Shown: positions 7,137-61,575, counted from the whole stretch's first letter. The stretch is DNA of 63,876 nt, filler included, from Reclinomonas americana ATCC 50394 (GCA_048213135.1; 16 parts of 16 records of this genome joined end to end with filler, not necessarily neighbours in it); one strand, 5' to 3'. Made by a program: numbers and translations. Notes: generated by a model not told the origin, from the letters alone.

Positions 7137-10100
7137 ATGTCTCGTCGATACGAGATGCACGATCGCCGGCATGGTGACGGTGGCGACGGTGGTGGCGGCA
7201 GTGGCAGTGGTGATCACCACTCACGTGGACCGCGGCAGTACAACGAAGGACGGCGATGTTGCGTGTGGACATTACGCACCCGTCTCTTCTTCTTTCTCTC
7301 CCTCACCCTCTCTGTCTCTCTCTACATCCCACTTCGACAAGTCGCACATCTCTCTTCTGTGGTCTCGTCGCTTTTCGTTGTCTCTCAACAAGAGTCCACT
7401 TGTCTCACGACTTTTTCATGCAAAATCCATGCACAGCGTGGGGTGGTGGTGGCGATGATGCGCGTCACTATCAACCGCGTGGTGGTCGCGGTGGTTACCG
7501 CGCACGAGGAGGCCCGCGTGGTGGAGGTTTGCCGCACACATCACTTTTTTGTCGCCCATCAAAGTGTGCATTCAAGTCGTTGCGCAGGTCGCCCGGGAGA
7601 CCGACGCAGCTATGATGGCGGCGGCGGTGGTGGTGGTGGTCACTATCGTCCAAGGGAGGAGCCTCTGCCGCCACCTCCTCACGAGATCGAGCTCGACAAC
7701 ATTCGCAATGTGCTGGTCGGCATTGGCGATGTGGGTGCGCATGCGGTGGACGAGCAGCTGTCGGCGCTGGCGGACTTCCTGCTGGATCAGCCCGCGGATA
7801 ATCACGACGATATAATTTACCTGTTGCTGCGATGGTGTGTGTGTGCGCGCGCGATGAGTGTGGGCGCATGTGCTCATTCTGCGTGCAGCATCGACGAGCT
7901 GTCGACCAAGACGCCGATCTACGGCACGCTGATCGGGCTGATGCACCGAACGGACCCTGGCTTTACTGAGCGGCTGTTGCGGCGATTGGTGAGCGGCCTG
8001 CGTCGGCACTGGCAGAGGGGGCGGTGGCTGCAGGCGAAGAACTCGGTGCGCTTTGTGTGCGAGCTCGCCAACTCGTGCGTGGTGCGCGAGTCGGATGTGC
8101 TGCGGATGCTGGTCATGTTCGCCGATGAGGCACGCAAGGAGGGTGTGCGACGCGAGCGAGCCGACTACTTTATGCTGCTGCTGCTGTCTGCGTTGCCGTG
8201 GGTTGCGTAATCTGCATGCTTGTTTTCTGTCGTCTGGATGCCGTGACTGACTCGCCACGCTGTGCAGGTTGGCAAGACCTTGTACAGTGGAAAGAAGGCC
8301 GACCTGCTGGATCTGATTACGGGTGTGACGGCGTACATGGACGCACGCGCAAAGGACGTGGACCAGTCGGCGCTGGCCATTTTCAAGAATGACGGAGTTG
8401 CGCCAGAGTCTCTCTGCTCGTGTGCGCAGTTGTCGTCACTCATATTTGTTCGATTGCAGAGAGAGTCGTACGACATGCTGGCGTATGTGTGGGGCTGCAT
8501 TAGGGTGCTGCGACAGCGCGACTGGCAAGTGGCGACCACCTTGCAGCCGTACAAGGCGCGCATGGCCGAGTTGCACAAGCTGCACCCGATCGAGTTGCCG
8601 GAGATTGTGATTCCAGCGGATGTGCGTTGTGATTGCGGTTGACTGAATCGAGTTGTGCGTCGTGGCTGATGATGTTGGGTGTGTGTTATTCGCAGGATCC
8701 CTCTGCACAATACCCCGTGTGTCGATCGCAATTGTGGCTGTTTCCGGTGTCGGAGAAGATTGCACTGCCAGGTGAGTTGGTGGTGGAGATTAATTGCAGA
8801 CGCTGCCTTCATGGCGAGCTCACGAGCCATTGGTCGCCTTGCACATGCGCAGTGGACGAGGACATGGTGCGCACAGAGTTGGACCCGGATCTCTTGGTCG
8901 CACGCGAGTACATTGTGGAGACGCTGTACTTTTTCAACGCCACCCCCGACGAGTGCGTCCGCCGCCTCGCAGCACTCCCACTCAACTTTGAATATCGCCT
9001 GTTGTTGATTGAGGTGTGTGTTGGTTGTACAAAAACACTCGCTGTTCCCCCTAAATCTGAACCGCATCTGCAGACGCTGATTGGCGAAGTCCTGCGATTG
9101 CCGGTGCCACCTTTCCGCATGCCGTACTACACGCTGCTGATGGTGGCGCTCACCAAGGCCGATGCGGGTCTGGCGCCCATGGTGAGTCTGCTTGCGCATT
9201 ACGTCGTCATCCTGCCGCATGCTGAAACATCGGTGTGCTGCGGTGCAGTTTGGTCGTGCCATTAACAGAATTGCGGCGCGGGCGGACGACATGGACTTGG
9301 AGTGCATCGATCGTTTCGCGTCGTGGTTTGCACAGTACATTTCCAACTTTGCGTTCCAGTGGATGTTCACCGCCGACTGGTAACGAACTGCACGCGCATT
9401 TCCTATTCCCACCGGCCTCGTGGCTCATTAGCAACGCGCGCGTGCGCAGGGTGTCGTTTGCGGAGGAGCTAGCATTGTCGCCACGACGGTACACGCTGCA
9501 GCAGGTGATTGACAACTTTGTACGCCTGTCGTTTGCGGAGCGCATCCGGGAGATACTGCCGGCGGCGCTGCACGAGTTTGTGGCCGCGGAACCTGCGCCG
9601 CTGTTCTCGTACGCCGAAGAAGGTTTGCCGCGTGTGCACGAGCATGTGTCGATTCATAACTTCTCATCGCGTGACAGAGGTGGCCGGTTCGCGTGTGGCG
9701 AATCAACTGGAGGAGATGTTCAAGCGCAAGGCCCCGGCCGACGCGGTGTTGGCGTTCTTCAGAAAAATCGCCGGCGAGCGCGTAGAGGAGATGGAGGAGG
9801 ACGGCGACGATGCCAGCGCTGCTGCCGCCGCTGCTGAAGTACCCGAGCCGGACGAGCTGATCGAGAGTGAGCAGGAACGTGTGCGGCTCTTTACGCAGTG
9901 CCTGTTGCTGTTTGGCAGCCGCAGCTTGACGCACACTGTGACGGTGTTGGAGCGGTACCGCGCAGTGTTTGCTGAGATGTGCTCACACGGCATGGCCTGT
10001 CGCACATCGGCTCTGATGGCAGTTGCCGAGGTGTGGGCGCTGTCCACTCAAGTTGCGTGCCCATGCAGATGCACACGCGCATTATCATCGTGGAACACCT

Positions 10101-11009
10101 CTCATTTCTCTTGCACAGTACATTACAATTGTCGTGGATCGACTGCTGACGTACATGATTGTCGACTGCTCGGCCATCATCCACTGGCTCTTCTCGGAGG
10201 AGATGGCGCCGATGTTTGAGCAGTTTTGTGCCTCGTCGTTGTCTTTCTTCCACCTCTCACATTGCTCGGCTCATGGTGCTGCTGTTGTCGCAGAGGTTTC
10301 ATGTGGGAGATTATGCGCGACACCTTCTACAAGTCGGTGGCGCGCATCGATGTGGTGGCCAGTGATTTGGCCAAGGCCGAGAAGCTCTTGCATCGCGAAC
10401 ACAGGAAAGCTGCCCGTCATGGTCGGTCGTCTCCTCCCGCGTCGGACTCCGCGCCGTCGTCAGGCGACGAGGCTGTCGACGAGGGCGGGCGTGCCGATGA
10501 GAGCCTCGAGGACCGCATTGAGCGCATTCGTGCCACGCTGGAGCAGGTCAAGCGTGAGCAGCGCGACATGTTCCTCATCCTGTTCCAGGTACAACAACAA
10601 AGCAAGAGCGCCGCTGTGTGTTGTCACTTTGCCGTCGTGCGCTGACACTTTCTCTTTTAGCGCTTCACGATGAGCGTGGATCGACGCATCTCGGAGGGTG
10701 CCGACGATGCGTGGGTGACGTACACGCTGCAGCGCATGAAGGAATTCGGTCGCAAAGTTACGCCCGCTCAGTGTAGCACGAGCGGCCTGCGCACTCGATC
10801 GTTCTGACTGACCTCGGTGAGCTGCACAGTTCCGCGCCGAGATCGGCTCGTACCTGCGCACCCTCGGCGAAGTTGTCTTTACCAGCGAAGTCGATCCGGC
10901 CATTCGCGACGAATTCAATCGGTGGCGTGACATTTACACGGAGCGCACGCTGTCGCTGTCGGGTCTGCACACAACGTCCAAGTTGCTGAGTTGCTTCCCC
11001 AACATGTGA
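7137..11009 (+). CDS. NCBP1: Nuclear cap-binding protein subunit 1 (CBP80)
   Basis: MIF4G-like motifs ELSTKTPIYGTLIGLM, VRFVCELANSCVV, ERADYFMLLLLSALPW, YRLLLIETLIGEVLRLP, DMDLECIDRFASWFAQYISNFAFQW, LLFGSRSLTH, IVVDRLL. About 14 introns, stop TGA 11007-11009. Confidence 0.92.
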
Positions 11010-11100: not shown

Positions 11101-14100
11101 ATGTCTGCGCAGCATCGTTTGTCTGTGTTGGAGAAGCACTTGAACCCCGTCGGTGCGGGAGGCTCGCGCTCTGCGGAGGAGGAAGAGAGGGTTGTCGCGG
11201 CTCCCATGGCCGCGGAGATTGATGCCGGAGTTGGCGAGGATGAGGATGGAGAGGAGCATGTTGACACGGGTATGTCTTTGCACACACGCACACGCACGCA
11301 CAGAGGGGAGAGAGAGTGAGAGAGTGAGAGAGTGCGAGAGATGCAGTCACAGGGAGCGAGACGCACACACTGCAGTGCGTTGTGTGCTTGCCTTGCGCTC
11401 TCCCTGCGTATGCGTGTGCGTGAAAGAGAGAGAGAGAGAGAGGAGAAAGAAGGGCGAGGANNNNNNNNNNNNNNNNNNNNNNNNNNNNNNNNNNNNNNNN
11501 NNNNTTAATTAATTAANNNNNNNNNNNNNNNNNNNNNNNNNNNNNNNNNNNNNNNNNNNNCTCGTTCTCTGTCAAGCGCTTGCAGGGCCTGTTTGCGTCC
11601 GAGTACCCCGAACTGCGTGTGGCCATGCTCAAGTTGCGTCGTTCTGCATCTCCCTCTCTTGTATCCCAACGTGATGTGTGACTGGTATGCGGGCAGTTTG
11701 TTCCGTGAGCCGATCTTTGCGCCGCGCTACGACCTGGGCTACCAGCAGTTCCGCGAGGTACATCTTGCTGTTTGCTCCCTCTCTTCCTCTCCATCAAGTC
11801 TGAACCCTGTTGCTTCCTCCCGCTGCAGTTGACGCTGCAACGGTGCAAGCGTGTGGCCGCGAGCGGTCTCATCAACCTCCGTGACTACAAGAAGGAGCCT
11901 CTGCGGTACCTCTCTGGTCTGGAGTATGCGGCACTCGTCGACTCGTCGATGGCCACCAAGCTCGGCGTGCAGTTCTCGCTGTTTGGCGGCTCGGTGCTGT
12001 CGCTCGGCTCCGAGCGTCACGATCACCTGGTCGACGACATTGGCGCGCTGCGGCTGCCGGGCGTGTTTGCGCTGACGGAGTTGGGCCATGGCTCGAACGT
12101 GCGTGGTATTGAGACCACGGCCGTGTACGACCACGCCACGCAGGAGTTTGTCATCAACACTCCGAATGAGACGGTTCGTGTGTGTGCATTGTACAAAGTG
12201 CTTGTGAAGATTCTGACATCGCTTGCGACGTTTGCAGGCGCAAAAGTGCTGGCTCGGCAACGCCGCCAAGCACGGCGTGATGGCCACCGTGTTTGCGCAG
12301 CTGACGCTCGGGGGCGAGGACAAGGGCATCCATGCGTTCTTGGTGCCGATCCGCAACGCCGACACGATGGAGCCGGTGCCGGGTGTGCGCATTGCCGACA
12401 ATGGCGCAAAAATGGGCCTCAACGGTGTCGACAACGGTCGCCTGTGGTTCGACAATGTGCGCATTCCGCGCGAGAACCTACTGAACAAGTTCATGGACGT
12501 GGACGCCAACGGCAACTACGTCACGGCGCTGGCGAGTGCCGATCTGCGCTTTGCCACCATGATTGGTGAGTGGCGACCCTTGCACTCTCTGTTCCACTCC
12601 GTTTCTCACCTGTGGCATCGGTGCAGGCGAGCTGGTGGGTGGACGTCTGGCAATCTCTGGTGGATCGCAGACGCTGTGCAAGGCGGCACTGACCATTGCC
12701 ATCAAGTACGGCTCCACTCGCCGCCAGTTTGGCATGCCGGGCGAACCGGAGACGTTCATTCTGGACTACAAGACGCACCAGATGCGCCTGTTCCCGCAAC
12801 TGGCCAAGACCTACGCGTACCACTTTTTGTTTGCCGACGCCGCCGTCAAGTACGCCAACCGCTCGCCGGCGACTATGAAGGAGGTGGGTGGAGGTTGTAG
12901 TGGCGGAGGCGGTGGTGCGATGTGATGCGCGAATCTCATCGTGGTGATGACTGCAGGTGCACGTGCTGTGTGCCGGTCTCAAGCCGCTGACCACGTGGCA
13001 CAAGGTCGACACGCTGCAGAATGCTCGCGAGTGCTGCGGTGGCATGGGCTTCCTGGCCGCCAACCGCATCGGACCGTACAAGACCGACACGGATGTGGAG
13101 CAGACCTATGAGGGTGACAATGGTGCGAAGGGGAAAAACCGTTGATTTTCTTGAAGATAATTTGGCTGACTCGATCGTCCCCGCGCAGTGGTGTTGCTGC
13201 AGCAAGTGACGCGCTCGCTGCTGTCGGACCTCAAGCGCGACATGCGCTCTGGTGGCAAGCTGTCGGCCGTGCTGAAGGTGGCCGAGCACGAGTTCTGGCC
13301 GTACCTGCACGACAAGAACCCGGTCAAGCGCCGCATGCTCAGCGATGTGCGTCACCACCACTTCTCCTTCCCCTTTTGTAGTTGGTACTCACATTAGTGT
13401 TGTTGGCACAGGAAAAGACCAGCGACCCGCGATTCTACCAGCGTGCGTTCGAGTACCGTCAGTTCAAGATGCTGATGAAGCTGGCGGCCAAGTTGGAGAA
13501 GTTGTCGGCGTCGCGACAAATGACGCCGCTGGAGGCGTGGAACAACTGCCTCGACCTGGTCATTGACACGGCCCTGGCGTACATGCACAAGTTGGTGTTG
13601 GAGAAGGTTTGTGCATGTGCGTGCAGCTGATTGCGTGTCATGACACTCACCCTTTCTGATGCAGTTCCTGGAGGGCATTGAGAAGGCACATGCTGGCGAC
13701 CGCGACATGCTGCGCGTGCTGTGCTCGCTATACTCACTCAACTACCTGGAGGAGAACATGGGCTGGTACCTGTCGAACAAGTACTTTGCGCCGAGCAAGG
13801 CCGACGCCATCCACGAGCAGATTCTGCGCCTGTACGACGTGATCCGCCCGGTGGCAGTGGACCTGTGCAACGGTTTTGGCTTGCCGGAGGACCTCATCGG
13901 TGCTCCGATTCTCGGCGATTGGGTCGAGGCCATGTCGTGCGTGCACACACTGCTGCTGCTGCTGCTCCCTCCCTTGTGTTTCAGTCGTCTGACTTGCGTG
14001 TGCGATAACAGGTGGCACAACACACCCGAGGCCAAGGCCGCGTCAGGGTCGTCGTCGTCCTCATCTGGCACTGCAGCCGCCCCGTCTGCATTCGACATGT

Positions 14101-14411: not shown

Positions 14412-14466
<55 letters not shown>

Positions 14467-15426: not shown

Positions 15427-19283
<3,857 letters not shown>

Positions 19284-19384
19284 TGTAGTGAAATGTTCGA
19301 AGTCGACATCGACTTTCTTTTGTTTTGTTTTTTTACTCGTCACTCTCTCATCCATTCACCATTTTTGCATTACACACAAGCCGT

Positions 19385-20777
19385 CTACGTCACTGTGATC
19401 ACGAGGTCAGCGGCATGCGCCAGTGAAAACGCTGCAGTACAGCTGGACGCAACGTGCAACTCACTGGCATCCGACGGCAGTTCGCCAATGTCGAGCTGAA
19501 CGCGAGGAGAGAGCAAGATGAGCGTGCGGATGCATGGAGCATGCACATTAAGAGTCCGACGCAACGGTGGTCGACATGGGTCGCGGCCATGACTCGCCCA
19601 GTCGCCCGGCGTCGGCCATGGCAGGATCGAGAAGCTGCGACGCTGTGTGTGCGGGAGTTGCCAAAGTCAGCGCGACGCCAACGCACTGTGTTTTCTCCAA
19701 CATGGCAAACCATTCCGCTGATGCTTGTCGAGATCAATAAATTGCTTGGAGCACACGGCGGCCGATTCGGGATGCAGCGTGATCATGACAAAGTACGCCG
19801 TCAGTGGCTCCACGTCATGCCGCAAGACAGGAGACTGCAAGAAACGTCAGCACACCCCTCACTGCGTGGCGTCGACGTGCAGGCGAGACGCAACGGCGAG
19901 AATGGCCTTGGAGAAGCGAGCGGTGGCATCGGAGACCACTTGCAGCGTGATCTCCTGTCCGTTCGGCAGAGTCGACCCAATGCTGTACCAGTCGCGCAGC
20001 AGCAAGTACAACTCCTTGACAAGCTGGTGACGCGATGTGAGGAATATGACAAATAACAGAACAACAACTACAGGAGACGCGCGCACCAGCAACTGATACT
20101 TGCGGTTGGAGTCACTGTCGGGGACGATGCGCATCAACTGTGTGCACACACAACACGCGCGCGCGTGTGAGACAAAAGTAGTCGACGGGAAGGAGGAAGG
20201 CGGTAGGAGGCACGGACCTCATTCCAGTTGTCGGAGAAGGTGCCGTCACAGCAGTCCATGTACTCGACCAGTATCCGCTGCAGGGCCTCGAATATCTTTT
20301 TCTGTGGACGGGATGAGTTCACGAACCTGCATCGCTGCGCGGGTGGGTGCGGTGGACAAACCTCCAGGATGGGATAAACTTGACTGTGGATGGACTTGAT
20401 TTGGTCAGGCGTGAACGACTCCGAGACCGAGAGAAGAATGGAGAGGTACTCGTCGGTGAGGAATGACAAGGTGTCCATCCACTGCGAGAAGAAGCTGGGA
20501 TGCGTGGCGGCGAACACGTCGAGTTCGGCGGAGAACGCGCAGGCCTTGGTCTCAAACAGTGGCTTTGCAGGTGGAGGAGTCGCCTGCCGCGGTGGTGTCG
20601 ACGGCTGCGACATGTCGCCGTCGTCAGTGTTGATGGTCGACTGTGCAGAAATAATCAAAAGAGAGTGAGCGAAAACAAGAGAAGAAAGATGTGGATGCAC
20701 AACGCGCAACATTGACTGTCCTTGGTGCTGACTGTTGTTGCTGTCGTTGCGATTGCTGTTGTTGTTGTTGTTGTGAC

Positions 20778-20809: not shown

Positions 20810-21678
20810 AACGTGGCCCTTGGTGGCCTTCAAACTCGGCGACGCAGTACTTGTGCCGTTGATGGCCGGCGACTGCATCGACATGAGTGAGCAAACTGGC
20901 GACGGCCACACCACACCATGCCAGTGCCGTCAACGCATACCTCAACGCCGTTGGCAGTCGGCAATCTCCGTGCGGGTACTGTGCCCTCTTGCTCCAGCTT
21001 GGTGCGGGTGGAATGGTAGTGGAACACGCACAGGAACAGGAAGCGATTCATCTCCAACTCCTGCTGCTCCAGCGAGCGATTCGGGCTGCGTCCAGCATCG
21101 TGTGCATCCCACGTTAGCATCACTCACTTGCCACCCACCAGTGACGCGGTGCGGCAACAACGCAACTCAAAGTACTTTTGCCGCACGACATTCTCCAAAA
21201 ATTGCAAAAACGAGCGATAAACAATCTGCTGGTGCTGGAACACCAGCTTGCCAATGAGCACACACTGCTCGAAAGTGAGATACACTGGATCCTGTTGGCG
21301 GCAGACGCAGTCAGCGCACGTCCACCACACACACAAATGAAGAAAAAACAACGTGGCTCTCCGGCAAACCATCTTGGCGCGCACAGCATCTCGATTGCTG
21401 CGTCCCAGTCGGGGTCCCGTCATGCCGAGCTCCGACAGGGTCACCGTGCGTGCAAACAGGAAGAATACCAAGTCATCCTCGTTGTACGTCTGCAGCATCA
21501 GCATCATCAAGTCAGTCCGGTGGTGCAGCGGGCGTGAGCATCGAAGACCACCCTCCGGCGACTCACCCCGTCCAGGAATCGTCCCATGAGCTCGAGCTCC
21601 AGGAACTTTTCGCGGAAATTGTGGACCGACAAGATGACATCCCACGAGTATTGCTCGCCAAGCGCATGGATACCGTGT
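19385..21678 (-). CDS. Uncharacterised protein with polyQ tract (5' end in gap)
   Basis: Exons splice in frame: ...WDVILSVHNFREKFLELELMGRFLDG|TYNEDDLVFFLFART..., polyQ near 20740-20810, then helical C-terminal exons. 3' end approximate. Confidence 0.6.
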
Positions 21679-21778: not shown

Positions 21779-24700
21779 GGTGATGGTATCGTAGTAAAAG
21801 ACCGGAGCGAATTCCTGCAAGAAAAATGCACAACTGAGCACCTGCACGCAGCGGCGCTGTCGTGTGACACACGCACCGACTTTTGCTCGCGCTCCAGTGT
21901 CCGCCGCGCAACACCATGCGGCACTTGTAATCTGTGTGCCAACAGATCCACATGATCACCACGAGTGGAGAGGAGAATGCACGAGAAAACACACACCTCT
22001 TTGTGGATTCCGTGGTCAAATACACGGCACGCGAGTCATCGACTTGAGCTGCACTCATAGGCACAATCAATATCGCTCCCAGTGACACATCCACTCCATG
22101 GCGCCACGACATACCTCCGACTTGGACGAAGAATGCAACTGCCGGATGCTCATTCCGCAAAAGCACCGAGCTGCGGTGCACATTCGGCTCATCGACACGT
22201 ACAAATGGCGGATACATCTGCAATACACGAGAGGGAAGGCGCTCAGCAAACGCAGCAGCATGCGTGCACGTGCTCTCGCTGCGCCGAGTACCTGCCCAAC
22301 ACTGTCCGTCCGTGTCAAGGCGATTTCGCTGGCCAGCAATCTGTGCGACACGGCGTGTGAGACCGAAAAAAGAGCTCACACACACCGTGAGCACACAAGG
22401 CGATGCGCACCGCTGGAGACGCTGATCAACTGGCGGCGCATTAGGCACGCTCAATGTCGGCGGCGTCACGTGCAGCACACTCGGCGGCACCGCCAATCGA
22501 TCCAGATCCGCAAAATCGGCCATCTCAGCGTACAAGGTCTGGGCGACCAGACCGGCTTCGACACGCACAACCAGCGGCACCGTGAGCTGCCGGAAACAGA
22601 TGCGCGCTGCGTGGGAAAACAACAGCAGGTCAATGGGAGAACTCTACCGAGTCGGTGAGGGAGCGGCAACGCACTGGGGCGGTCGGTTCCTGGTGGCGGC
22701 TCGTCGGGCGGCGCCGTGTACTTGATGTTGAACTTGCGCAAGTACTCCTTGACTCTGTGTATGTGTGAGAAAGTGTGTTGCAAGTTGGGTGCGCGTAAAT
22801 GTCTGGGGCGCAACTCGGCGAGCTTGGGTCGGCGGCGTTCCACACGCGTCCACGTCCGTCGTCCGCGACCAGCTCGCCCACCGCGGCGATGCTCATGGTC
22901 GACGCCGTGCACTGCAGTGGCCACAAGTCAGCACGTGCGCAGAAAAGTAAGTGTTTGGTCCACCAGAAAGCGCACCACCGAGCTGTATTTGCTTCTCGAA
23001 AAACGTGACCACAGTCTCGGCATCCACTCGCACAATGACGGTGCGTGTCTCGCCAGGATTGATGGGCTCGTTGAACTCGACAACTTGCCCGAACGGACAC
23101 GATTGCTGTGCGAGTGGAGGTTGAGCCCCGAGTGCGACAATGGTGACTCGAAAAAAAGAGGAAACGAAGCACACATACCTCTGCGCTGCGGATAGTGACG
23201 TGCAAATCCTGCAAAATCTTGCGATCAAGAGCCAACACACTCGGCGCGAGAACCGACGGTGCTGCGACTCCCTTGGCGCCGACGACCGGCTTGACCGTCG
23301 CAGTGGCTGCGGTGGTGCACATGTGAGCGACACCTGGGCACGACAAGCAAGGCAGAATTGTTGAAAATTCATCACCAGCTGGATGGGCAGGAGCCGCTGA
23401 CGATGCGGGGCGCACAGGTGACGCTTGGCGCTGGTAGCCGGCAAACTGATTGTTGAAGGAGAGAGCCCTCGAGCGCACTGAACAAACATTCGGATCAATC
23501 AGCACGCACTGACCCCAAGTCCCTTCTCGCAATTCACACAAGACGCAACGGGGTGCGACAGTCGACCCCGAGTTGAAGGCACTCGCAGGGCGTGCTCCAG
23601 CAGTGTCACCAGCAGCGGTCGTGAACGGTCCCGCGTGCGATACCAGATGACCGGCAGGCTGCACCATAGGTGACGCGGAATCGCCGGGGCGAGCGACTGC
23701 GAAACACAAACTGAGCAAAGCGCGCGCGCGAAGAAGGCACACGTGCGGCACTGCGAGCAGACTCACCAACGAAAGTGGCATCGGAGTCAATCGACTCGTC
23801 ATCTGTCGACGAATCCCCCAATGACTCGTCGCCAAACTCGTGTCCCGGTGGCAGTCGGGCGATTGGCGGCCGGAAACTGCACACACACTCACAATCAGTG
23901 ACAGCATTGCATGGTAACCAGCGCAAGCATCACTTCTTACACAACTCTTTCAGCATGCTGTTGCTGATATCCGAATCGACAGACACCACTACACTGGCCA
24001 CCGGGTGAAGGCCGATGTTGCTGAGCAGCAGCTGCGTCTCGATGCTGTAAACCGCGCATCGTTAGCACCATCGACGGAGGTAGTCAGCCGACAAGAGAGG
24101 CGCACGCACGTTTCACCGGGAAACAGGTCGAACTCGGTGCTGTACGGCAGCTCAAATGTGGCTGTCAGAGTCGGCAGAGGCGGCAACACGTCCACCGTCG
24201 GTACCGGATTGGCCACAATCACCGTCATCGGGCTGTGACGACCCCGTGTGAGACAAGTGTGCATTTCTTCTGCCCGTTTCCACAACACGTACCAGTTGGG
24301 GCACTCACGGCACTTGTACTCCACGTGGCGAATGTACAATGTACCGGAAGACACAGCCGCGCCGCGGATGCGAATGTGCTGTCGTGAGCGTGACGGCACA
24401 AACATGACGCGCGGTTCGGCATTGAGACGGAAAAAGTCGGTGCGCACAGGAGTTTCGGCCGTCGGCAACGTGCCCTCGGGCACCAACTGGCAGCCGAGTT
24501 GCACATCGATAATGTTCAGATCGCACGCCAGCGGATTCTCAAAGCCCACTTCCACCTCGCACAGCTCGCCCTCGCTCCACTTGATCTGCACGCGACACAT
24601 GCCATCAGCTTCTTTGCCTGCATTGCAGCAATCTACGCAGCAGACACATGTACCTTTTGTCGATCGTTCTTCTTCTCAAACGGCGAGTAAATGAAGATGC

Positions 24701-41063: not shown

Positions 41064-42884
<1,821 letters not shown>

Positions 42885-46080: not shown

Positions 46081-46929
46081 ATGGTGTTCAGCTTGGCAAT
46101 TGTCGCTCGTCGCATGGCACTGGTGAGTGCGAGAGAGAGAGAGTGAGAGACAGTGCATGTGAGGAGTGAGACACAGAGATTGATATCAGTGTGCTGTCTC
46201 TCTCACTCTCCGTGTGTATGTGTCTCTGTGTGTGTACGCATGCCAGAGAGAACTGTGCTGTGTGTGTGTGTGTGCGTAACGCGTGCATCCACATTATCGT
46301 ATCTCTCTCTCACACACAGCGCGTCACACTCGCATCTTCTTGCGCGCTGCATCCCGCCTTTCCCACTCTCTCACTCTCTCTGTCTCTCCGTCTCTCCACT
46401 TCTCTCTCCCCCACTCCATGTCTCTGTCTCTGTGCGCGTGCGTGTGCACCATGGTCAGCGCCATTGCCACTCACGCGCTCATCCGCAGGCGCCCAGTGCA
46501 TCCGTGTTCAGGTCAAGTGTCGTACCTGCCATGTACATGAGCACCAAGGCTGTGAGTTGCGTCCATGTACGCAACAGAAGGAGAGGACGAACATTGTTTG
46601 TGATTGATTGTGATGAAATGCAGAGCATCCGCTGAGCAGCAAGCTGGAGCATGCACGAAAGGAGCTGCTCTCCACCGACTGGTGCGACATCTACTCTCTC
46701 TCTCTCTCCTCCTATCTCTCTGTCGTCTGACTGTGCGGCCAACAGGAGCGATCTGGATGATTTGGTGCTGGAGGATGCCGACAAGGCGTTGCAGCAGGNN
46801 NNNNNNNNNNNNNNNNNNNNNNNNNNNNNNNNNNNNNNNNNNTTAATTAATTAANNNNNNNNNNNNNNNNNNNNNNNNNNNNNNNNNNNNNNNNNNNNCT
46901 ACTCGCTCCCTCCCCCCCCCTCCCCCTCC

Positions 46930-51063: not shown

Positions 51064-52263
51064 ATGAGCGGAAAGCGGTCTGTGATCTATGGCACCGAGT
51101 ACCAAAAGGTCAGTGTCTGCCTCTCTCTCTGTATGTTCGTGTGTGTGCGATTGAAGACTCACACACTGCACGTGTGTGTGTGCGAGGATTGCGCAGCGCG
51201 GAGAAAAGACAGAGTGGGAAGGTGTGTGTGCGCGCTGCTCTCACTTTCCGCGCGTTTACACACGCACTCACTGCTCTCTCTCTGTTGCGCAGATGCGCTG
51301 GTGAAGCACGGCGTCATCGAGGCATCGCATCACTCCTCTGATGTTGCGCTCGTTGTGCTTGCTGCATTGCGCGATCCATTTTTCTGCAAACTGCTCATGA
51401 GGGGTGTGTGTGTGTGCAGGATGAGAGTGAGGAAGAGGAGCTGAGTGCGGCGGATCGCCGTCACGCCGAGCTGGCCGGCTCGTCGTTGGCCAAGCTGGAG
51501 GAGATGGAGGATGAGATCAAGGATGAGGTAATAATAATATCTTTTTTCATCGTCCGCCGGTCCCTGCCAGCATCCGCCTCACGTGTTTTGCAGGAGGAGG
51601 ACGAGTACGAGGCACTGAAGCGCAAGCGACGACAGCAGCTGATGCAGCAAAAGGAGCGCAGTCGATATGGCGAGCTTGCGTGGATCACTCAGCAGGTTCC
51701 GTGATGTGCCCAATGGCCCCTCGCGTGCGTGCACTCATCGTCGTCATTGCAGGAGTTCACAAAGGAGGTCACCGAGGCCAGCAAGCAGCCGGGCGTGTGG
51801 GTCGTCTGCCACCTCTTCAAGGACGGGTGAGCGATAGCGTGCGAGTCGCTGTGAGCGTTGGCACGCCACTGACTGCTGGCGTGTGTGTGGTTGCAGTGTG
51901 CAAGAGTGCAGCTTGCTGAACGAGATCCTGGGCGTGCTGGCGAGAAAGTTCCCCGCGGTCAAGTTCTGTCGCATCATCTCCGAAGACTGCATTCCCAACT
52001 ACCCCGACGCCAACTTGCCCACCATTATCGTGTACCGCGGTGGCGAGGTCGCCGTGCAGTACGTCGGCACGAGTCCGTTTGGTGGCTCCGCCATGACCGC
52101 CGATGGTGAGCCGTGTTGCCGGTGGTGATGGTGATGGCTTTGTCTGACACATTGGGGCGCAGATGTCGAGTGGGAGCTGTCGAGATTGAACGTGGTGCAG
52201 ACGGATCTGGAAACGTGCCCTCACGTGGAGCGTGGAGGCCGCACCAGGATTCGACGCGTATGA
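51064..52263 (+). CDS. Phosducin-like protein (PhLP2/PDCL3 type)
   Basis: TEWE|DALVKHGVI, EFTKEVTEAS...WVVCHLFKDG, LARKFPAVKFCRI...CIPNYPDANLPTIIVY, FGG, DVEWEL. Confidence 0.92.
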
Positions 52264-52373: not shown

Positions 52374-54939
52374 TTACAGTGTGGAGACGTCGTGCGCGCC
52401 GCTCTCCTTGATTCCAGCGCCCGTGATGCGCACCCACTCGACGTTCTTCTGCATCTCCGAGATCGTCTTGGCGCCACTGTATCGACGACGAGTGAGTGAG
52501 AAACATACACGAGAAGAGGCGGTGTGCAGTCTTCGTCTAAACACACACCAGTAAGAAATGCCACTCCGCAGACCACCGACGAGGTGGCGAATTACGTCGC
52601 TGACATCGCCGCGGTACGGAACCACAGCCTGTGATTGTGCAGTGAGCGTAGGCTCTCCAAAGGAGAGAGAGAGACTGCACAAGCGACAAACCTCCACGCC
52701 CTCTGGCGTCATCTCAAACACGTCTTCGGCGCGCTCACCCGATCGCTCCGCCTGTGAGATACAGAAGAGTGAGATGAGAGCGAGAACCCTGCTGGAGCAA
52801 CAGGCAGCAGTGATGGCAACAAAACCTTGCCCAAATTGGCACCGAGACCGGCCATACCGCGCACAATCTTGACGCGCTTGCCTGCCCATCACATTCACAA
52901 AACAATGCGTGCGTCAGCAAAACAGTTGGCAGTACTGACAGTGAAACACAAGATGTCGAGGGAGGAGAGAGTTGCGTCCCGTCAGAAATTAAAACAAATA
53001 ATTTGATCCACAGACCCGTTGGGTTGTCAAATAGAATTGTCTCATCCTTTGGACTCCACACACACGCACACACACAGTCACTGTGGAAAGACTCACCGCC
53101 CTTGGTCAGCAGCACGCCGGGACTCTGATCGGTGCCGGCCAGTGCGCTGCCGAGCATGCCCGTCGACGCACCGGCGGCAAGTGCCTTGGTCAGATCGCCA
53201 CTGCCACGAATGCCTGCACGCACAGAGTGAGCTCGTGTGTACAAGACACTGGCGCACGCACAGTTGCATGCACACGCACCACCATCGGCAATCAGCGGCA
53301 CGTCATACTCCTTGGCGGCGACGGCGCAATCCATAATGGCGGACAGTTGTGGCACACCGGCGCCCGTCACAATGCGAGTGATGCAAATGGAGCCGGGTCC
53401 CACACCGACCTTGATGCCGTCGGCACCCGCCTTGGCCAGATCGCGCACGCCCTCGGCGGTGCACACGTTGCCGACAATGAGCTGCACGTTGGGGAAGGCC
53501 TTCTTGAAATTCACCGTGGCGTCAATGCCAATGTCGCTGTGTCCGTGCGCAATATCGACCACAATCACGTCGCAGCCGGCCTCAATCAGCAGGCCTGCCC
53601 GCTCCAAATCACTGCCACACGAGTGAGCGACGGGCGGCGAAAAAAACAAGTGAGAAATGCGAGTTTGCACACACCCAGTCTTCACGCCAATGGCGGCGCC
53701 CACTTGCAGCTTGCCGACGGAATCCACCGAGCTGTACGGTCTCAGTTGACGGTTGAGCAAATCCTTGGCCACCACGAGGCCAGTCAACCTGACCACGTTG
53801 TGAGACACAGCACAACAAAAGCACAATGCACATAATCATCATCGCCAACACACAACTTGTTGTCACTGTCGACCAACACCAGCTTCTCGATGCGATGCTC
53901 GGCAAAGAGGCGCTTCGCCTCATCCACCGTCACCTTGTTTGTGGCCGTCACCACTGCGACTGGGGGATGAGTGGCCTGCACCAGCAGAATGCACATGGAC
54001 AACAACAGCGGGCGCAACATCGACTCCGCGGCGTCATCACATCGGCCACCGTCTGCGTGCTGCTCGGCGAGACAAAGCTGCGACCGCACACAACCCATCA
54101 GCGACTGCCAACAAAGAGCGGCAACAGTCTCTCGGTCAACGCACCGCACATCACGATTGGTGACAATGCCGAGCACCCGCTGCGCCGCATCGACCACCAC
54201 AAACGAGGTCACCATGGCGCGCATGCGCTCCATCAGCACGCTAATCGACGTATCGGGACTGATCGTGTACGGGTTCTCGATAATCACCGACTCGGCGCGC
54301 TTCACACGGCGCACCAAGTCCGCCTGATCCTTCGCCGACAAAAACCGATGAATGATACCAATGCCGCCGAGTCGAGCCATGGCCACAGCCATTTCCGATT
54401 CAGTCACCTGCATCACACAAGCAATCTCTGTCAGAGAGCGTGAGGGGAGAGGCAAGAGAGAAGGCGAGAGGAGTCGTGCAACGCACCGTGTCCATGTTGG
54501 ACGACACAATGGGTGTGCGCAGGGCAATGTCGCGCGTGAGACGCGTACTCACATCCGTGTCCTTTCGTGAGCGCACCGGCGAGCGCTTCGGCACCAGCAG
54601 CACGTCTGCAGATGCACATGAGAGTGAGCAAGAAGGCAACGGAGAAGAAGAAGGCGGAGAAAAGTGCGAGACATGCGCATATGCAAACACAAACAGAAAA
54701 GAAAAGCGCATGCATGCACAGAGCAAAGTGCAAGCACATAACAGCCATGAAAGAGCTGCAGCGGTTGAGTTGCACGCACCATCAAACGTGAGACCGACTT
54801 TGATGTCGGCCCATGTCCGCGTCGCCACAGTGGCCAGCGTGCGACGCATGGTCACCGCCGTCCTGCTGCCACTGCTGCTGATGCCCACAAGAGCCGCCAG
54901 CGAGGGCGACCACGTTGCGCGTGCGTACGCGCCAAGCAT
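52374..54939 (-). CDS. IMPDH/GMPR-family enzyme with CBS domains, most likely GMP reductase
   Basis: [26 protein letters not shown] pair, VDIAHGHS, catalytic [16 protein letters not shown], flap [19 protein letters not shown]...PEGVE with no Arg-Tyr dyad, ending [10 protein letters not shown]. Start at ATG 54939 or 54849. Confidence 0.88.
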
Positions 54940-55012: not shown

Positions 55013-58000
55013 ATGGCGCAATGGTTGACTGATAGAGACGAAGCTCAAGTTGCGTGCATGCTCGTGTGAGTGCAAGCCCCTCTCTTGCTCATTTTGTTCT
55101 TGTGTAGATTGTGGAATATGTTCGCTTGCTCGTGTACCCCGATGACATGGATGCGCGACAGCGTGTGGAGGATGCCCTGCAGGCGCTGGAGGGAACTCCT
55201 GGGCTGCTCACGATTCTCTTTGTTGCGTGAATGTGTGTGCATGAAGAGCATTTCGATGTTCTTCTCCTCAACATCAATGTGACAACACAGAACATTGCCA
55301 CGGACGCGACGCTGGGCGATGTGGATGTGCAACTGATGGCGGCGCTGCTGATGAAGACCAACATGTCTCGGCATTGGTACAAGCGACGGGAAGCGTTGCG
55401 TGGTGCTGACTTTGAGCTTGTGAGTCCTCTCGTGGCTGACTGACTGGTGACGTGCAGGAGCCCGATTCCTGCCGAGGAGAAGCAGATGCTGCGGCGAATG
55501 CTGGTGCAGCACATGGAGGAGCCAGATGACAAGGCACCGACGCACTCCTCCCATTCCCCCCATCTTCCTTCCTCAGTCACTCATTTCTGCGGGCAGGTGG
55601 CCATGCATCTGTTCATCCTGCTGTCGAAGATTGCACGCGCCGACTACCCGCTGGAGTGGGAGACGTTGTTTCTTGACCTGCTGGGTAGAATGCAGTCGGC
55701 GCATACGGCGTTGGAGAGGCGTCGGTGCACCATGGCGCTCTATTTTGTGCTGAAGGAGCTGGCCACCAAGACCATTTCGGGTCATCGTGTGCAGTTCCAG
55801 CAGGTGCCGTCTCGCTTCCCCTCCGCCATGCATGTACTCGACGCAAGAAGACTCACTGTGGTGGTAGCTGGCGGTGGACATTTTTGACTGGCTGCACGCG
55901 TCGTGGAAGGAGGCCACGAGTGCGCTATTTGGTGGCTTGCCTCACGGTGCGTGCTGCTGCCTGTCGATTCGTCCACAAGTCTCTCTCCCCAAATATCATC
56001 CTCCTTTCGACAGGCGAGGAAGAGTCGACACTATGGGTGGCACTGTTCACCACCAAGAACATCCGCCGTCTGCTCACCTACGGCTTCTCGTCGCTGACGG
56101 AGCACCCGTCTGTGGAGCAGTTCATGCATGGCCTGTTTGACACGATTCCCAATCTCATGCAACTTCGTTGCGTTGGTCCGTGACATGCAACACGGGAGTG
56201 TACATACACTGACGACAAATGTTATTGTGCAGGTGTGGACAGAATGGCGGCTGGCGCAGCCCCTGATAGCGACCTGGTGGGATACCTCGAGACGATTTGT
56301 CGTGCCACGTTCCGCATCTTCAACAAGGTGCTGCAGCGTCGTTCGTCAGCACTGGAGCCGTTCCTTGTGCCGGCACTTCAGCTCGCATACAATGTGACGG
56401 TGGCACCGGCGGCGTCGCTGTTTGAGGGCCTGTCGGTGGCGGCCATGAATTTCATCAAGGATGTGCTGCTGTGCGCGGTGTACAAGTTGCGACCGTGTGC
56501 GTTGCCATCGTCCTTGGCAAATATACTCACCCAGCTTTCATGCAGACCGCCATCGACCGTGCAGACCGAGGCTGTCGAGCGCCCGCGACAGGGACCCATG
56601 CTGTTGGCGCAATTCTTCACGCCAGAGGTTGCGTCGCGTGCACTCTTTCGCATGTTGCGAATCGCGCCGTTCCATCTCTCACATAGAGTGAGCAGATTGA
56701 GCGACACCTGGTGGAGGTTGCCGTGACATCATTCATGCGGCTGCAAGCGAGTGATCTGGAGATGTGGGAGAAGGATCCGGAGTCGTTCTTCTCGGAGATG
56801 TCGGTCGATGAGTACCAGCTGCGGTGTAGAGTTGCGTCTCGACTGCGCACAATCATGTGCATGCAGGGGAGACATGCTGACTGCGCGATGTGTAGCCTGC
56901 GGCATCTACCATGTTTTCTACGCTGTTGCGAGATTACCACCCCAATCTGGGACCATTCATGGTGGAGACGCTGCAGCAGATTGTCGGCAGTTTCGTCGCG
57001 GAACTCGATTCGTTCACTCTCAGCTGCTCTGTTTATCGCTGACAACTGCGTCATGTGTGTCCACCTCAGGCCAACCGGCCGAAGTGTCACTGGATTACGT
57101 GCTTCTGCGGGATTCCGTGTACTACGCGCTCGGCTGTGCACCGTACGAGTTGGGCTCGTATCTGGACTTTCCGGCGCTTCTCGGTTCCGTGTTCCTGAAC
57201 GACATTTATCAGCGCGATCCACTGTTGCGTCACACATAATATCTCTCTTTCTCTTCCCCCCCTCACATTCTCACGCCCGCATTAAATTGTGTGCAGGTGG
57301 CAGATCCTCCGCCGCCGTGCCGTGTGGCTGTGCTCCGAGTACGTGGAGTTGCTGACCGAGGAGTCGCAAGCGGCACTCTTCCCCGCTCTGGTCGATGTGT
57401 TGATGAGTGGCGACTTGGTGTTGCGCTTGACCGCCGTGCAGACCCTTGGTGACGGTATGAATGGTTAAGAGCGACAAGAAACGGAGGAGTTGGCTGACAG
57501 ATGTGTTTCATCTGCAGTCGTGGAGTATCTCTCGTGCAGCATCGATGCACTGGAGCCGCATGTTGGTCACCTAATGTCGGCCGTCGTGCAGCTGCTGAAG
57601 GACACGGAGGATGCCGACATTAAGTGTCGCCTCTTGAAGGCGGTGGTGGCGCTCACCGAGCGTCTCGAAGACAAGGTGTGTTGATAGTGCGGAAGGTCGT
57701 GATGCTGGCAAGATTTGCTGAGTCCGCTGGCTGTGTCAAACACAGTTTGCGCCCCATGTACCCACGTTGGTGCAACTGCTGCCGGAGTTGTGGGAGCACT
57801 CGGAGGGCTCAAATCTGCTGCGATCGAAAGTGCTGCAGACGTGCAAGCAGCTCGTAGAGGTTGCGTCGCATGTCCTTTGCTCTCATCAGTCGACCCCACT
57901 CTGACAGCATGCTTTCGGGTAGGTGCTTGGCACCGAGTCGGTACAACTGTACGACTTTGTGCTGCCGGCCATTGCGTACGCAGTGGGCGAGGATGAGGAT

Positions 58001-58871
58001 TGCAGATTATATCACGCCGAGCATGGTGTCGGTGCGCGCCGTGGGCCGAGTCAAGCCTGCTTCTCTTCTCCTGCTGACTGACTACGCATGTCGCGCTCGC
58101 AGCATTGTGGTTGGTCGTCATTGAGAATGCGCCAGTGTACACGCCGACACTCGCCGAATTGTTCCACTACATGGTGAGCATGGCGGAGGACGAGGATTTG
58201 CAGGATCCGAGCATGGTGTACAAGATGTTGCAGTTGGTCGACGGCTACGTGCTCCTCGGCGAGGCGGATTTCATGAATGTTGCGTGCACGTTCGATTGAG
58301 GGTGGAGATGGGGAGGAGAGAGAGAGAGAGAGAGAGAGGTGAGTGATGCTGAGTGTGTGGCCATAGACCTTTAGCGAGCGCCTGCCGCGTGTGCTGCTGG
58401 GCATCATTGAGCACATTCGCGAGGCGGCCATCATCAAGGTGTCGGATGTGTGCCAGACCATGATCCAGCTCTTCCCGGAGAACGCGCCCGCCATGTTGCA
58501 CGACGTGTTTTTGCATCTAGTTGACAAACTGTTCTCCGATGAGGTGCGTTGAGACACGGATAGAAGCGCTGTGTGTCAGCTGGTGACCCATCGCATGTTT
58601 TGCGCAGAGCTCGCTGGTCGGTCTGCACACGATTTGTCTCATGTCGCGGCTTCGCGTGCAAAACTCTGCGTACTTTGAGGAGTTCTTCAAGTCCCTGAGT
58701 CAGAGCCAGCAGCAGGACTGCTTCCAGCCGTTCTTCACCAAGATGTTGACCATGGTGCGGTGGTGACTCGCGTTCCTTCACCCACCAACGCGAGAGAGAG
58801 AGACTGACACAGTTGTGCGTGCAGTTCGACGACGGTGTGTACTCGACGTTGAACAAGAAGATGTGGTCGCT
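55013..58871 (+). CDS. IPO11: Importin-11 (Kap120-like) karyopherin, 3' end in gap
   Basis: Importin N-domain, IPAEEKQMLR, LLSKIARADYPLEWETLF, VLKELATK, DLEMWEKDPESF, LLRDSVYYALG...YEL, ILRRRAVWL, DLVLRLTA. About 18 introns. Confidence 0.85.
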
Positions 58872-59051: not shown

Positions 59052-61575
59052 AACGATTTGCGGCACACCCAACTACATTGCTCCCGAGGTGCTGGATGCC
59101 AAGATTGGACACTCGTTTGAGGTGGATGTGTGGTCACTCGGTGTGATTTTGTACACAATGGCCATTGGTCGGCCGCCGTTTGAGACGTCGGATGTGAAGA
59201 GCACGTACCGACGCATCAAGGCCAACAACTACACATTCCCCGACCACGCGCAAATCTCGGACGAGCTGCGCGCCCTCATCACTTCGGCACTGCAGTCGGA
59301 TCCTCGTTGCGTCTCGACAGCCAGCGGTGATATTATTGTGTTTTCATCGCCACTCATTGCGCACGTGAACAGAACAAAGGCCAACAGTCGACGACATGCT
59401 CAACTCGGAGTTCTTCACACGCTACATGATTCCCACCGAGCTGCCGCAGTCGTCGCTGCAGACTGAGCCGCCATTCCCGTCGGCCTTCTACGAGCGACAG
59501 GCCGTGGCCACGGCTCCAACGATTGTGGCCGGCTCCGACAGAGAAAAGGATGTGCGTACTGCAGTGTTTTTTGCAGGCTACCGCCACCAACGCCACCATC
59601 TCATCTCTTGTCTCTCCATGCCTTCAGCGAGGTGCATCGTCATCATCATCATCATCGTCCTCCACAACAGCTTCAGCCGCCGCCGCTGCTGCTGCTGCTG
59701 CTGGCTCTTCTTCGTTGGCATCACGTCCGCGATCAGCGTCCAGCCAACGACCACCGACTGCCACGGGAGCACCATCGCCACTGGTCAACGCCCCGAATGC
59801 AATGATGCCCGGCAGCTCATCACCTCTGGTGCCGTCACTTCAGTTGCATCAGCAGCAACTGTCACCGGCCGGTGCACTGCAGCCACTGCACCAGCAGGGC
59901 CCGCTGGCACCACCGCCAGCTGTGGTCGGCTCTCGAGTGCGCCCGCAGTCGGCAACCGCAGTCATGTCGTCAACACCGGTCTCGGCCGCCGCTGCCCCGC
60001 AGTCGTCACGATCCCGAGGTTGGTGCTCTCTCTCTCTCTCGTTACCCCTCAGCGCAACGCAATCCGATTTGCAGTCTCACACGCCTCTTGTCCACGCGCA
60101 GGACCGACGGCATCGCCTGTCGGCACAGCCACTGCCATCACGGTTCCGACACTGGTGGTCCCACAGGCCGTCTCCGGTGGTGCGTCGACACCCACTGGCT
60201 CGTCGGCGCCTAAATCGTCGCGCCGTGTGGCTTCGTCACGCGACCCGAGTCCGGCACCTGCCGCCACCGAGGTCGACGACGACGATCGTGGCAACCTCAC
60301 CGCCATGTACGAGACCCTTGCGCAGTCCATGTGTGTCCTCGAGTCGGAGGGCGGAGCGAACGGACAGGGAGATCAGGAGAATGCTGCGCCGGTTGACAAT
60401 CCAGCGCCGAGCAGCCGAGTTTCGTCTCGCGCCGCCGCAGCAGCGGCTGGTGTTGCCGCCGTCGTGCCGCAGAGTTCGGCGTCGTCGCGCCCTCTGAGCG
60501 CCTCACCAATGACCAATGCGCCGGCGGCCACACAAATGGCAGCGGCCTTCAGCAAGGTGTTGGTGGTGGAGCAAGTGGCGCCAGGACCGTCCTCATCGTC
60601 GTCATCCTCGGTGGCTGCCTCGTCGGGCAAGCCACTGCCAGAGCCGACGGTGTGGGTCGTCAAGTACGCCGACTTTACCGAAAAGTATGGCTTGGCCTAC
60701 CGCCTGAACGACGGCTCCACCGGTGTGCACTTTAACGACTCGACCAAGATGATTCTCAACCAGGACGAGTTGCGCGACACTCTTCTTCTTTCGATGCCTT
60801 CTCCACTCTGCTCACTCTGGCGCGCAGCTCTGTGGAGTACTTTGAGAGGAAAAAGTCGTCGGCTGGCGCCTACGACAAGTACCACTGCTTCTCGCTGTCG
60901 AACTACCCGGACAACCTGAAGAAGAAGATCACGCTGATCACCTACTTCCAGAATCACTTGGACGAGGGTGTGCGTCCGACGGCACGCAACGGCCCGCTGA
61001 GCACCGTGAAGGGCGAGCAGAACCTGGTCTACGTCAAGCGGTGGCTGTCAACCCGCCACGCCATGATCTTCCGCCTCAGCAACAAGTGCGTGCAAGTCAA
61101 CTTCCACGACGGCACCGAGTTGATTCTGAGCTCGGAGGCCCGCGCGGTGACGTACACTGGCACTGACAAGCGCCGCACCACGCACCACCTGTCGGATATC
61201 ACACGCAATCCGCACCCGGAGGTGGCCAAGCGTCTCAAGTTCACCAAGAACGTGCTGTACCAGCTGATCGACAACCAAGGGCACCACGGCCAGTCGGCGG
61301 CGCCCACGGCCTCCTCAGGCCCCAGCGGCTGCAAGTCGTCGCGCGATTCTGCCGGCAGTGCAAACGGCGACGCGGCGGCGGCCACGGCTGCTGCGCTCAT
61401 GCAGCCTTCGGCGTCGTCAATGACGTCGTCGAGGCGACAGGCGGCCGCCGCCGCAGCCGCCGCTGCATCGGCTGTGGCTGTCGGATCGACTGGTTTGATG
61501 CCGGCAGCTGCGCCTCCGGCACGGCCATTGTCGGCACCAGTTGCTCGCCAGCAGTTGGTGGCTGGCGCGCGGTAA
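59052..61575 (+). CDS. PLK1: Polo-like kinase (5' half of the kinase domain in gap)
   Basis: [14 protein letters not shown]...[25 protein letters not shown]. Polo box 1 [16 protein letters not shown]...GVHFNDSTK, linker [11 protein letters not shown], polo box 2 [27 protein letters not shown]. Confidence 0.95.

Follow-up and report, generated by a model that had tools for sequence, protein, structure and literature searches.

Which sequences can act as 5' splice sites (5'ss, here also donors) in an intron-dense genome, and how they are read, is the question raised by a 63,876-base stretch of DNA from Reclinomonas americana ATCC 50394 (GCA_048213135.1), referred to below as the window. Few features of U2-type donors are as well conserved as a purine at +3 and G at +5. 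The initial annotation of the window, in which reading frames were restored by hand, nevertheless placed many introns at a donor of the form N|GTTGCG, with T at +3 and C at +5, and proposed that it represents a one-nucleotide shift of the G|GTGCG donors found alongside it. Roca and Krainer reportedly described, in 2009, a shifted register between 5'ss and U1 in human cells. Here we ask whether GTTGCG donors are real, what distinguishes them from the other donors, and how they might be recognised. Gene structures predicted from the sequence indicate that GTTGCG is very probably a real donor class of ordinary U2-type GT-AG introns, making up about 15–18% of the introns called.

Intron calling and abundance of GTTGCG donors

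Introns were identified in two ways. The first was a profile-to-genome spliced alignment in which GT and GC donors and AG acceptors were admitted without distinction at a flat penalty, so that no donor model was involved. Twelve homologues of the IMPDH-family gene yielded 11 introns of 63–215 nt, and twelve PARP homologues yielded 16, of which 15 were kept and a terminal 837-nt intron was dropped. The single acyl-CoA oxidase (ACOX) homologue gave six introns, four of them retained (a 40-nt GC-AG intron and a 47-nt GTCACC intron were removed), and two homologues of the Polo-like kinase (PLK), both Trypanosoma PLKs, gave eight, of which the kinase-domain intron at 59306 alone was retained. The seven dropped PLK introns lay in a low-complexity linker or had GC donors with gaps of 26–33 nt; the small number of homologues for PLK and ACOX leads to spurious short "introns" in low-complexity stretches. 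The 31 homology-backed introns retained begin with GTG (19), GTT (11) or GTC (1), so that T at +3 is frequent even in this strict set, while GTTGCG itself is rare in these genes. Their coding sequence has 4% A at third codon positions, and their median intron length is 68 nt.

Third codon positions in the called coding sequence (CDS) of the window are strongly biased (A 4–8%, G+C about 76–85%), and this codon bias made a second, ab initio approach feasible. A Viterbi gene-structure caller was built that combines a 3-periodic Markov coding model, which trained itself on the window, with an acceptor matrix and with terms for intron length and interior composition. Two sets of calls were produced: set A, which is donor-agnostic (every GT scored alike; three retraining rounds), and set B, to which a table of donor hexamers learned from the caller's own calls was added, exon bases never being used. 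GTTGCG was already the top donor hexamer on the first calling pass (13/144). It remained so in set A, where it began 32 of 211 introns (15.2%), ahead of GTGCGT (25), GTGAGT (20) and GTGTGT (16), and it began 37 of 205 introns (18.0%) in set B; the initial annotation had put the share very roughly at a fifth. Of the homology-backed introns, 23 were recovered exactly in set A and 25 in set B, with misses falling mostly on in-frame GTs 3–15 nt away. As a control, the reversed, non-complemented sequence produced six introns per strand and no GTTGCG donor, compared with 101 introns on the real plus strand.

All 15 plus-strand sites listed in the initial annotation do read GTTGCG; 13 were called in set B and 11 in set A. 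Of the others, 59306 is backed by homology, and at 7258 the caller chose a GT at 7265 instead, although the frame first proposed there begins at an ATG.

The window holds 48 copies of the hexamer on the plus strand and 37 on the minus strand, compared with ∼65 expected on both strands under an order-3 Markov model. Among non-donor GT hexamers, GTTGCG accounts for 0.58% of those inside exons and 0.63% of those inside introns. At donors it is enriched ∼25–30 fold over non-donor GT hexamers, which contradicts the possibility, raised in the initial annotation against itself, that it is no commoner than background GTNNNN. The 85 copies comprise 37 called donors, 17 copies antisense to a gene, 13 outside gene chains, 11 in sense exons and seven inside introns. 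More broadly, T occupies +3 in about a third of all donors (68/211 in set A, 72/205 in set B). The related GTTTG, GTTCG and GTTTC donors noted earlier also recur, with GTTT at 23 and GTTC at five of the 205 set B donors.

All 37 called members start with GT, end with AG, and upon removal restore an open coding-like or homologous frame. Homology or continuity of a Pfam profile backs the members at 54018, 59306, 10052 and 31040 (introns are cited here by donor position). Across the intron at 10052 the MIF4G_like_2 profile extends to position 110, matched by residue 123 of the 124-residue upstream exon, and is picked up again at position 113 by residue 2 of the exon downstream; across 31040 the Beta-lactamase profile extends to 86, two residues short of the exon end, and residue 1 of the next exon takes it up at 89. 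In four cases, at 8202, 30808, 59306 (Pkinase profile position 247/263) and 60769, the upstream exon ends within a domain. For the last of these the homology aligner had picked a 32-nt GC-AG gap with the same acceptor, which is shorter than every other called intron.

Anatomy of the class and its distribution among genes

The consensus of the 37 donors consists of A, T or C at -1, the hexamer itself, T (73%) or C (22%) at +7, and C (51%) at +8. The exon side sets the class apart from the other donors, as the initial annotation had noticed: G is found at -1 in 3 of 37 GTTGCG donors, compared with 76 of 108 GTG donors (Fisher 1.4e-11) and 20 of 35 other GTT donors. The donor models were blind to the -1 base in calling. 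Given phase and codon-position composition, 12.5 G would be expected at -1 (P=2e-4), while A is present at 15 positions against 6.2 expected (P=3.5e-4). Thus, at GTTGCG donors, G at -1 is avoided and A preferred, rather than the position being merely unselected. Among the canonical donors, G at -1 is more frequent with GTGAG (31/34) than with GTGCG (23/34; p=0.03), and this stronger need of GTGAG donors for the exon G would be expected with a U1 able to pair with the C at +4.

The remainder of the intron is unremarkable. Introns in the window are T-rich, with a CTCAC/CTGAC-like motif 10–25 nt upstream of a [GA]CAG acceptor. A CT[CG]A[CT] branch-like motif within 45 nt of the 3' splice site was found in 28 of 37 GTTGCG introns and 75 of 108 GTG introns; CTG- and CTC-type branches occur in like proportion in the two groups (Fisher p=1), and the [GA]CAG acceptor, composition and branch-motif distance are alike in GTTGCG and other introns. 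GTTGCG introns are slightly shorter and tighter in range (median 66 nt vs 70 nt for GTG introns; Mann-Whitney p=0.008), with the acceptor 57–88 nt downstream (one at 241 nt). Pairwise local scores of intron interiors were similar for GTTGCG (mean 7.66, maximum 15) and GTG introns (mean 7.73, maximum 32).

Several familiar origins for such a subset were considered and rejected. Introner elements and U12-type introns likewise form intron sub-populations with a conserved 5' end of their own; unlike either, the GTTGCG introns have no interior sequence family, and their branch and acceptor are as in other introns. The lack of family resemblance among interiors, and the failure of paralogous introns to align beyond GTTGCGT, exclude introner copies. 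U12-type introns have an [AG]TATCCTT donor and a TCCTTAAC branch near the 3' end; here the donor is GTTGCG rather than [AG]TATCC, and there is no TCCTTAAC branch. Lastly, sliding of the boundary by one base would need G at -1 (only 3/37) or G as the first base of the downstream exon (12/37).

GTTGCG donors are clustered by gene. Across 18 gene chains with at least four introns, holding 34 GTTGCG donors among 177 introns, the clustering is significant by permutation (p=0.0002). Rich genes include the karyopherin-like gene (10/19), the gene part at 18479–20713 (6/11), the serine hydrolase (4/8) and arrestin-like gene 1 (4/9); poor ones include the catalytic part of PARP (0/19), the helicase (0/10), IMPDH (1/11) and TRAPPC9 (1/17). 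As possible causes, G+C at third codon positions (GC3), intron GC, coding score and intron density were compared with the clustering, and no tracking was found.

Two arrestin-like paralogues, at 39273–42404 and 43225–44686 (both plus strand), lie on adjoining contigs of the joined window. They are ∼57% identical by eye over ∼270 aligned residues and have three intron positions in common, each in the same phase. The donors at these positions are GTGAGA/GTATGT, GTTGCG/GTTGCG and GTTTCG/GTTTTT. The introns at 41914 and 44010 both begin with GTTGCGT, with A or C at -1, and their interiors cannot be aligned. This pair is one case of motif retention under divergence, which points to selection on the motif.

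How the motif may be read, and comparison with known systems

Part of the shift proposed in the initial annotation holds. Positions +3 to +7 of GTTGCG donors (TGCG, then T 73% or C 22%) match positions +2 to +6 of GTGCG donors (TGCG, then T 79% or C 15%), and the exon G is dispensable, both as in a shifted register. A shift of the whole consensus is not seen. The canonical cores GTGAG, GTGCG and GTGTG serve as donors 33–34, 32–34 and 18–19 times, respectively, and their T-inserted forms GTTGAG, GTTGCG and GTTGTG 0, 32–37 and 0–1 times. The window holds 31 copies of GTTGAG and 45 of GTTGTG, yet these are hardly or never used; under the GTGAG:GTGCG ratio, the probability of finding no GTTGAG among 32 T-inserted donors is 1.4e-10. 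The base after TGCGT also differs, being C14 G7 T4 A2 in GTTGCG donors vs G15 T6 C4 A2 in GTGCG donors.

Duplex energies were estimated with nearest-neighbour parameters for unmodified RNA on idealised 10–11-mers. A standard ACUUACCUG U1 end pairs with A|GUUGCGU at -1.4 kcal/mol and with A|GUUGAGU at -4.0 kcal/mol. A hypothetical ..ACGCAAC.. end gives -11.8 kcal/mol for A|GUUGCGU, -11.2 for G|GUUGCGU and -6.1 for GUUGAGU; it pairs with GUUGCGU at 7/7 positions, and the U that it sets against -1 agrees with the preference for A. GTTGCG was favoured only by ends with G opposite the C, namely a Mastigamoeba-type ACGUAC and the hypothetical ACGCAC and ACGCAAC. These observations do not agree with a standard ACUUACC U1 acting in a generic shifted register.

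We tentatively favour a mechanism that recognises GTTGCG(T/C) as one specific heptamer lying wholly within the intron (+1 to +7), without help from G at -1. A U1 5' end complementary to GUUGCGU would pair with the donor, the +1 G taking the place of the -1 G of canonical G|GUGCGU donors, and -1 would then face the next U1 base, giving the preference for A. A non-standard U1 would be required. It may be a second variant (e.g. one C-to-A change in an ..ACGCACC.. type) or, alternatively, the main U1, with G opposite the +4 C, read one base out of register at a fixed second position. A wider proposal is possible though doubtful: two 5'ss codes, G|GTG(A/C/T)G and N|GTTGCG(T/C), would coexist in one U2-type spliceosome, N|GTTGCG(T/C) being served either by a U1 variant of its own or by one non-standard U1 with a fixed second register. 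As N|GTTGCG(T/C) is concentrated in certain genes, donor type might act as a gene-level regulatory label.

Several observations weigh against this U1-based account. An ..ACGCAAC.. U1 also pairs well with GUUGUGU (-9.9 kcal/mol), but GTTGTG donors are not seen. No model tried accounts for the frequency of -1 G falling below neutral, and with any CC-containing U1 a G at -1 makes the bulged duplex stronger (e.g. -9.9 vs -5.5). The differing base after TGCGT suits a separate reader rather than a pure register shift, and the gene-wise clustering has no mechanistic explanation. In the available text of Roy and Bowser (10.1101/2022.06.08.495308), Thecamonas and the Mamiellales have standard U1s despite their +4C donors, so an atypical consensus alone is no proof of an altered U1. 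Furthermore, all junctions are deduced from homology or coding potential: GTTGCG accounts for only two of the 31 homology-backed donors (54018 in IMPDH, 59306 in PLK), and most class members rest on the self-trained caller, which misplaced six of those 31 introns.

Recognition of GTTGCG by a protein (a Luc7- or U1-C-type factor, or another RNA-binding protein), or its selection at the U6/U5 stage, would make these a separately regulated set of introns. We regard this as unlikely, although it would suit the gene-wise clustering, untracked by the measures compared above, as well as the exon-side preferences that duplex energies leave unexplained. LUC7 paralogues are reported, in the text available to us, to define two 5'ss classes that differ in exon-side and intron-side strength (10.1101/2022.12.07.519539). 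The "right-handed" and "left-handed" classes described there resemble the trade-off seen here, with GTTGCG purely intron-side and GTGAG mostly accompanied by -1 G. As far as that text describes them, the LUC7 classes are gradients within one canonical register, whereas here the +3 and +5 bases differ and there is a one-base offset. An invariant motif of six to seven bases with complementary-looking logic is, moreover, more typical of RNA-RNA pairing, and the evidence for clustering is limited to 18 gene chains of a single window.

It is improbable that N|GUUGCG is recognised by one U1 of standard type through a shifted or bulged register, the Roca-Krainer case having become mainstream and the donors being a generic one-base displacement of G|GUGCG. 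Such a reading would explain why T/C at +7 mirrors T/C at +6 of GTGCG donors and why -1 G can be dispensed with (the +1 G filling its slot), and the A enriched at -1 would face U10 of standard U1. According to the portions of Tan et al. 2016 (NAR, PMC4856993) available to us, experiments in human cells have established both shifted and +2/+3-bulged registers; non-canonical registers account there for 1.5% of 201,541 sites and the +2/+3 bulge for 54–68 sites. The human sites resemble those in the window in having a GU donor with U at +3, the downstream consensus one position late, the cut at GU and a dispensable exon G. From what that source describes, they differ in that here one motif makes up 15–18% of donors rather than ∼1.5%, only the GCG core is used, and standard U1 disfavours it. 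The absence or near-absence of GTTGAG and GTTGTG donors, the better pairing of standard U1 with GUUGAGU, and the change in the base after TGCGT all argue against this reading, as does the scarcity of -1 G, which a bulged register predicts to be favoured.

A historical origin, in which a cohort of GTTGCG introns was gained through one insertion mechanism with its own target preference (non-G, often A) and is tolerated by a permissive spliceosome, seems quite improbable. Gene-wise clustering and the slightly shorter, tighter lengths would be expected of such a cohort, and the scarcity of G at -1 might be a mark of the insertion target and have no functional meaning. The interiors, however, do not resemble one another as a family would; the motif is kept at a common position in the arrestin-like paralogues while the rest of the intron has diverged; and six bases are nearly invariant at donors enriched 25–30 fold. 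Finally, that the donors are artefacts of hand or ab initio modelling, with the real junctions at other nearby sites, is very improbable: the caller was trained on the window itself, mis-called 6–8 of the 31 homology introns and worked from sequence, and the site at 7258 is ambiguous, but set A saw nothing beyond GT and still ranked GTTGCG first, the reversed control gave none, several members have homology or Pfam continuity, and 37 of 85 copies lie exactly at coding-to-noncoding transitions followed by a branch motif and an AG at the usual distance.

The U1-based account has precedents. Based on the available text of Roy and Bowser (10.1101/2022.06.08.495308), in Entamoeba the donors are GUUUGU and U1 has changed along with them to 5'-AACAAAC-3', and in Mastigamoeba balamuthi GUGCGC donors go with the U1 variant ACGUAC; these cases are a precedent for U1 5' ends co-evolving with atypical donors. 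The likeness lies in U at +3 or C at +4, and the window also uses G|GTTTG(T/C) and GTGCG(T/C) donors. As described there, those lineages have a single transformed consensus, and Entamoeba is intron-poor, whereas the window is intron-dense and has at least two sharply different classes, the second with C at +5. The Mamiellales (Ostreococcus, Micromonas) and Thecamonas trahens are comparable in their GC-rich genomes, short introns, GTGCG(T/C) donor and CTGAC-like branch motif. The accounts of them, so far as available to us, give a single strict consensus with a standard U1 and do not describe a GTTGCG class or avoidance of -1 G. Relative to the GTGCG and GTTTG lineages as covered by these sources, the window adds a distinct GTTGCG class in an intron-dense genome. 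Literature text searches found no report of GTTGCG or GUUGCG as a donor consensus, a consensus published only as a logo being beyond the reach of such searches.

In the sources available to us, non-canonical U1 registers are known only as rare human exceptions. If the present reading is true, these introns would offer a natural system for studying how the cleavage site is fixed when the pairing register or U1 sequence differs, and whether snRNA variants can partition introns into classes. Annotation would suffer as well: one intron in six here would be modelled wrongly by a gene finder whose training covered just one donor matrix.

Intron coordinates and the rest of the window

The coordinates of the GTTGCG introns are collected in Table 1.

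Table 1. GTTGCG introns in the window. A, called in the donor-agnostic set; B, called in the set with the donor-hexamer table.
Gene or location	Position	Strand	Calls and remarks
Start of CBP80-like gene (candidate)	7258..7436	+	In neither ab initio set; GT at 7265, other frame, same acceptor (7436) chosen
CBP80-like	8202..8267	+	A, B; upstream exon ends in Pfam MIF4G, profile position 151/203
CBP80-like	8397..8459	+	A, B
CBP80-like	10052..10118	+	A, B; Pfam MIF4G_like_2 continuous
Acyl-CoA oxidase, 5' part	11633..11696	+	A, B
BRCT-containing gene part	18638..18698	-	A, B
	18945..19010	-	A, B
	19213..19453	-	B only; 241 nt, least certain
	19496..19565	-	A, B
	19835..19894	-	A, B
	20641..20710	-	A, B
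	21086..21166	-	A, B
	22753..22814	-	A, B; acceptor GAG
TRAPPC9-like	25645..25703	-	A, B
Beta-lactamase-family serine hydrolase	29978..30034	-	A, B
Serine hydrolase	30437..30498	-	A, B
Serine hydrolase	30741..30808	-	A, B; last residue of upstream exon is Pfam Beta-lactamase position 145/329
Serine hydrolase	30977..31040	-	A, B; Pfam Beta-lactamase continuous
	35031..35093	+	A, B
Arrestin-like gene 1	40124..40190	+	A, B
Arrestin-like gene 1	40529..40608	+	B only
Arrestin-like gene 1	41369..41436	+	A, B; paralogue has no intron at the matching place
Arrestin-like gene 1	41914..41983	+	A, B; position and phase of paralogue intron 44010
Arrestin-like gene 2	44010..44078	+	A, B; position of intron 41914
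	46556..46623	+	A, B
Phosducin-like	51343..51419	+	B only
IMPDH/GMP-reductase-family	53954..54018	-	Spliced alignment, 12 homologues; B
Karyopherin-like	55049..55107	+	B only
Karyopherin-like	55222..55290	+	A, B
Karyopherin-like	55395..55457	+	A, B
Karyopherin-like	56167..56232	+	A, B
Karyopherin-like	56486..56545	+	A, B
Karyopherin-like	56628..56686	+	A, B; one of three with G at -1
Karyopherin-like	56831..56895	+	A, B
Karyopherin-like	57224..57296	+	A, B
Karyopherin-like	57860..57922	+	A, B
Karyopherin-like	58279..58366	+	A, B
End of Polo-like kinase catalytic domain	59306..59372	+	Spliced alignment, two PLK homologues; missed ab initio
Inside first polo box	60769..60827	+	A, B; last residue of upstream exon is POLO_box position 29/61

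The window is not a single molecule. It consists of 16 short contigs (about 1–12 kb) joined by 100-base spacers of the form N44-TTAATTAATTAA-N44, located at 2221–2320, 4137–4236, 11461–11560 and 12 further places; gene order and neighbourhood across the spacers are therefore meaningless. Its GC content is 57%. Pfam searches of stop-free open reading frames and called exons revealed nuclear eukaryotic genes on both strands: a Vps4-like AAA ATPase, a CBP80-like MIF4G protein, acyl-CoA oxidase, PARP, TRAPPC9, a phosphoribosyltransferase, the beta-lactamase-family serine hydrolase, kelch and U-box proteins, the two arrestin-like paralogues, SRR1, an SPB4/DDX55-like DEAD helicase, a phosducin-like protein, the IMPDH/GMP-reductase-family enzyme, the karyopherin-like protein and the Polo-like kinase. 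With 205 introns in 31.7 kb of called CDS, intron density is 6.5 per kb, and the median intron is ∼68 nt.

The IMPDH-family gene (52404–54858, minus strand) encodes a CBS-containing enzyme of the prokaryote-like IMPDH type, with best relatives ∼55% identical. These include amoebozoan transcriptome sequences (Pyxidicula 54%, Soliformovum 54%) and thaumarchaeal IMPDHs (52–53%); none of the database proteins is close. Within this gene, at 53853–53856 on the minus strand, there is a tandem donor with the two sites three bases apart (caa|GTT|GTGTGT), where the homology alignment settles on GTTGTG and the ab initio caller on GTGTGT. It may thus be that part of the apparent GTTG.. donors are T|GTG.. 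sites with one extra codon. The nearest named relatives of the PARP are from a chytrid and Willaertia. For the acyl-CoA oxidase (11561–14591, plus strand), a word-based database search returned a sole relative, located on roughly 10-kb metagenome contigs, with 51% identity over the query exon and cluster members named acyl-CoA oxidase; a eukaryotic relative was not found in this search. A metagenome scan for close relatives of the C-terminal PLK exon gave 216 pattern matches, none of which was confirmed.

Rfam models of snRNAs had no match in the window, either at the gathering score or at E up to 1. No Rfam family of any kind reached its gathering score, and at E up to 1 Rfam returned only weak snoRNA and miRNA look-alikes. 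One of these, at 62925–63020 on the minus strand, resembles the C/D-box snoRNA snoZ178 (34 bits, the gathering score being 100; E=0.0027); weak matches to miRNA models overlap it, and it is probably due to chance.

Lastly, (TG)n and (GA)n microsatellites are very abundant in the introns, with GTGTGT making up ∼16% of intron-internal GT hexamers. Across the whole window, ACACAC/GTGTGT and CTCTCT/AGAGAG are the hexamers most over-represented after the spacer motif.

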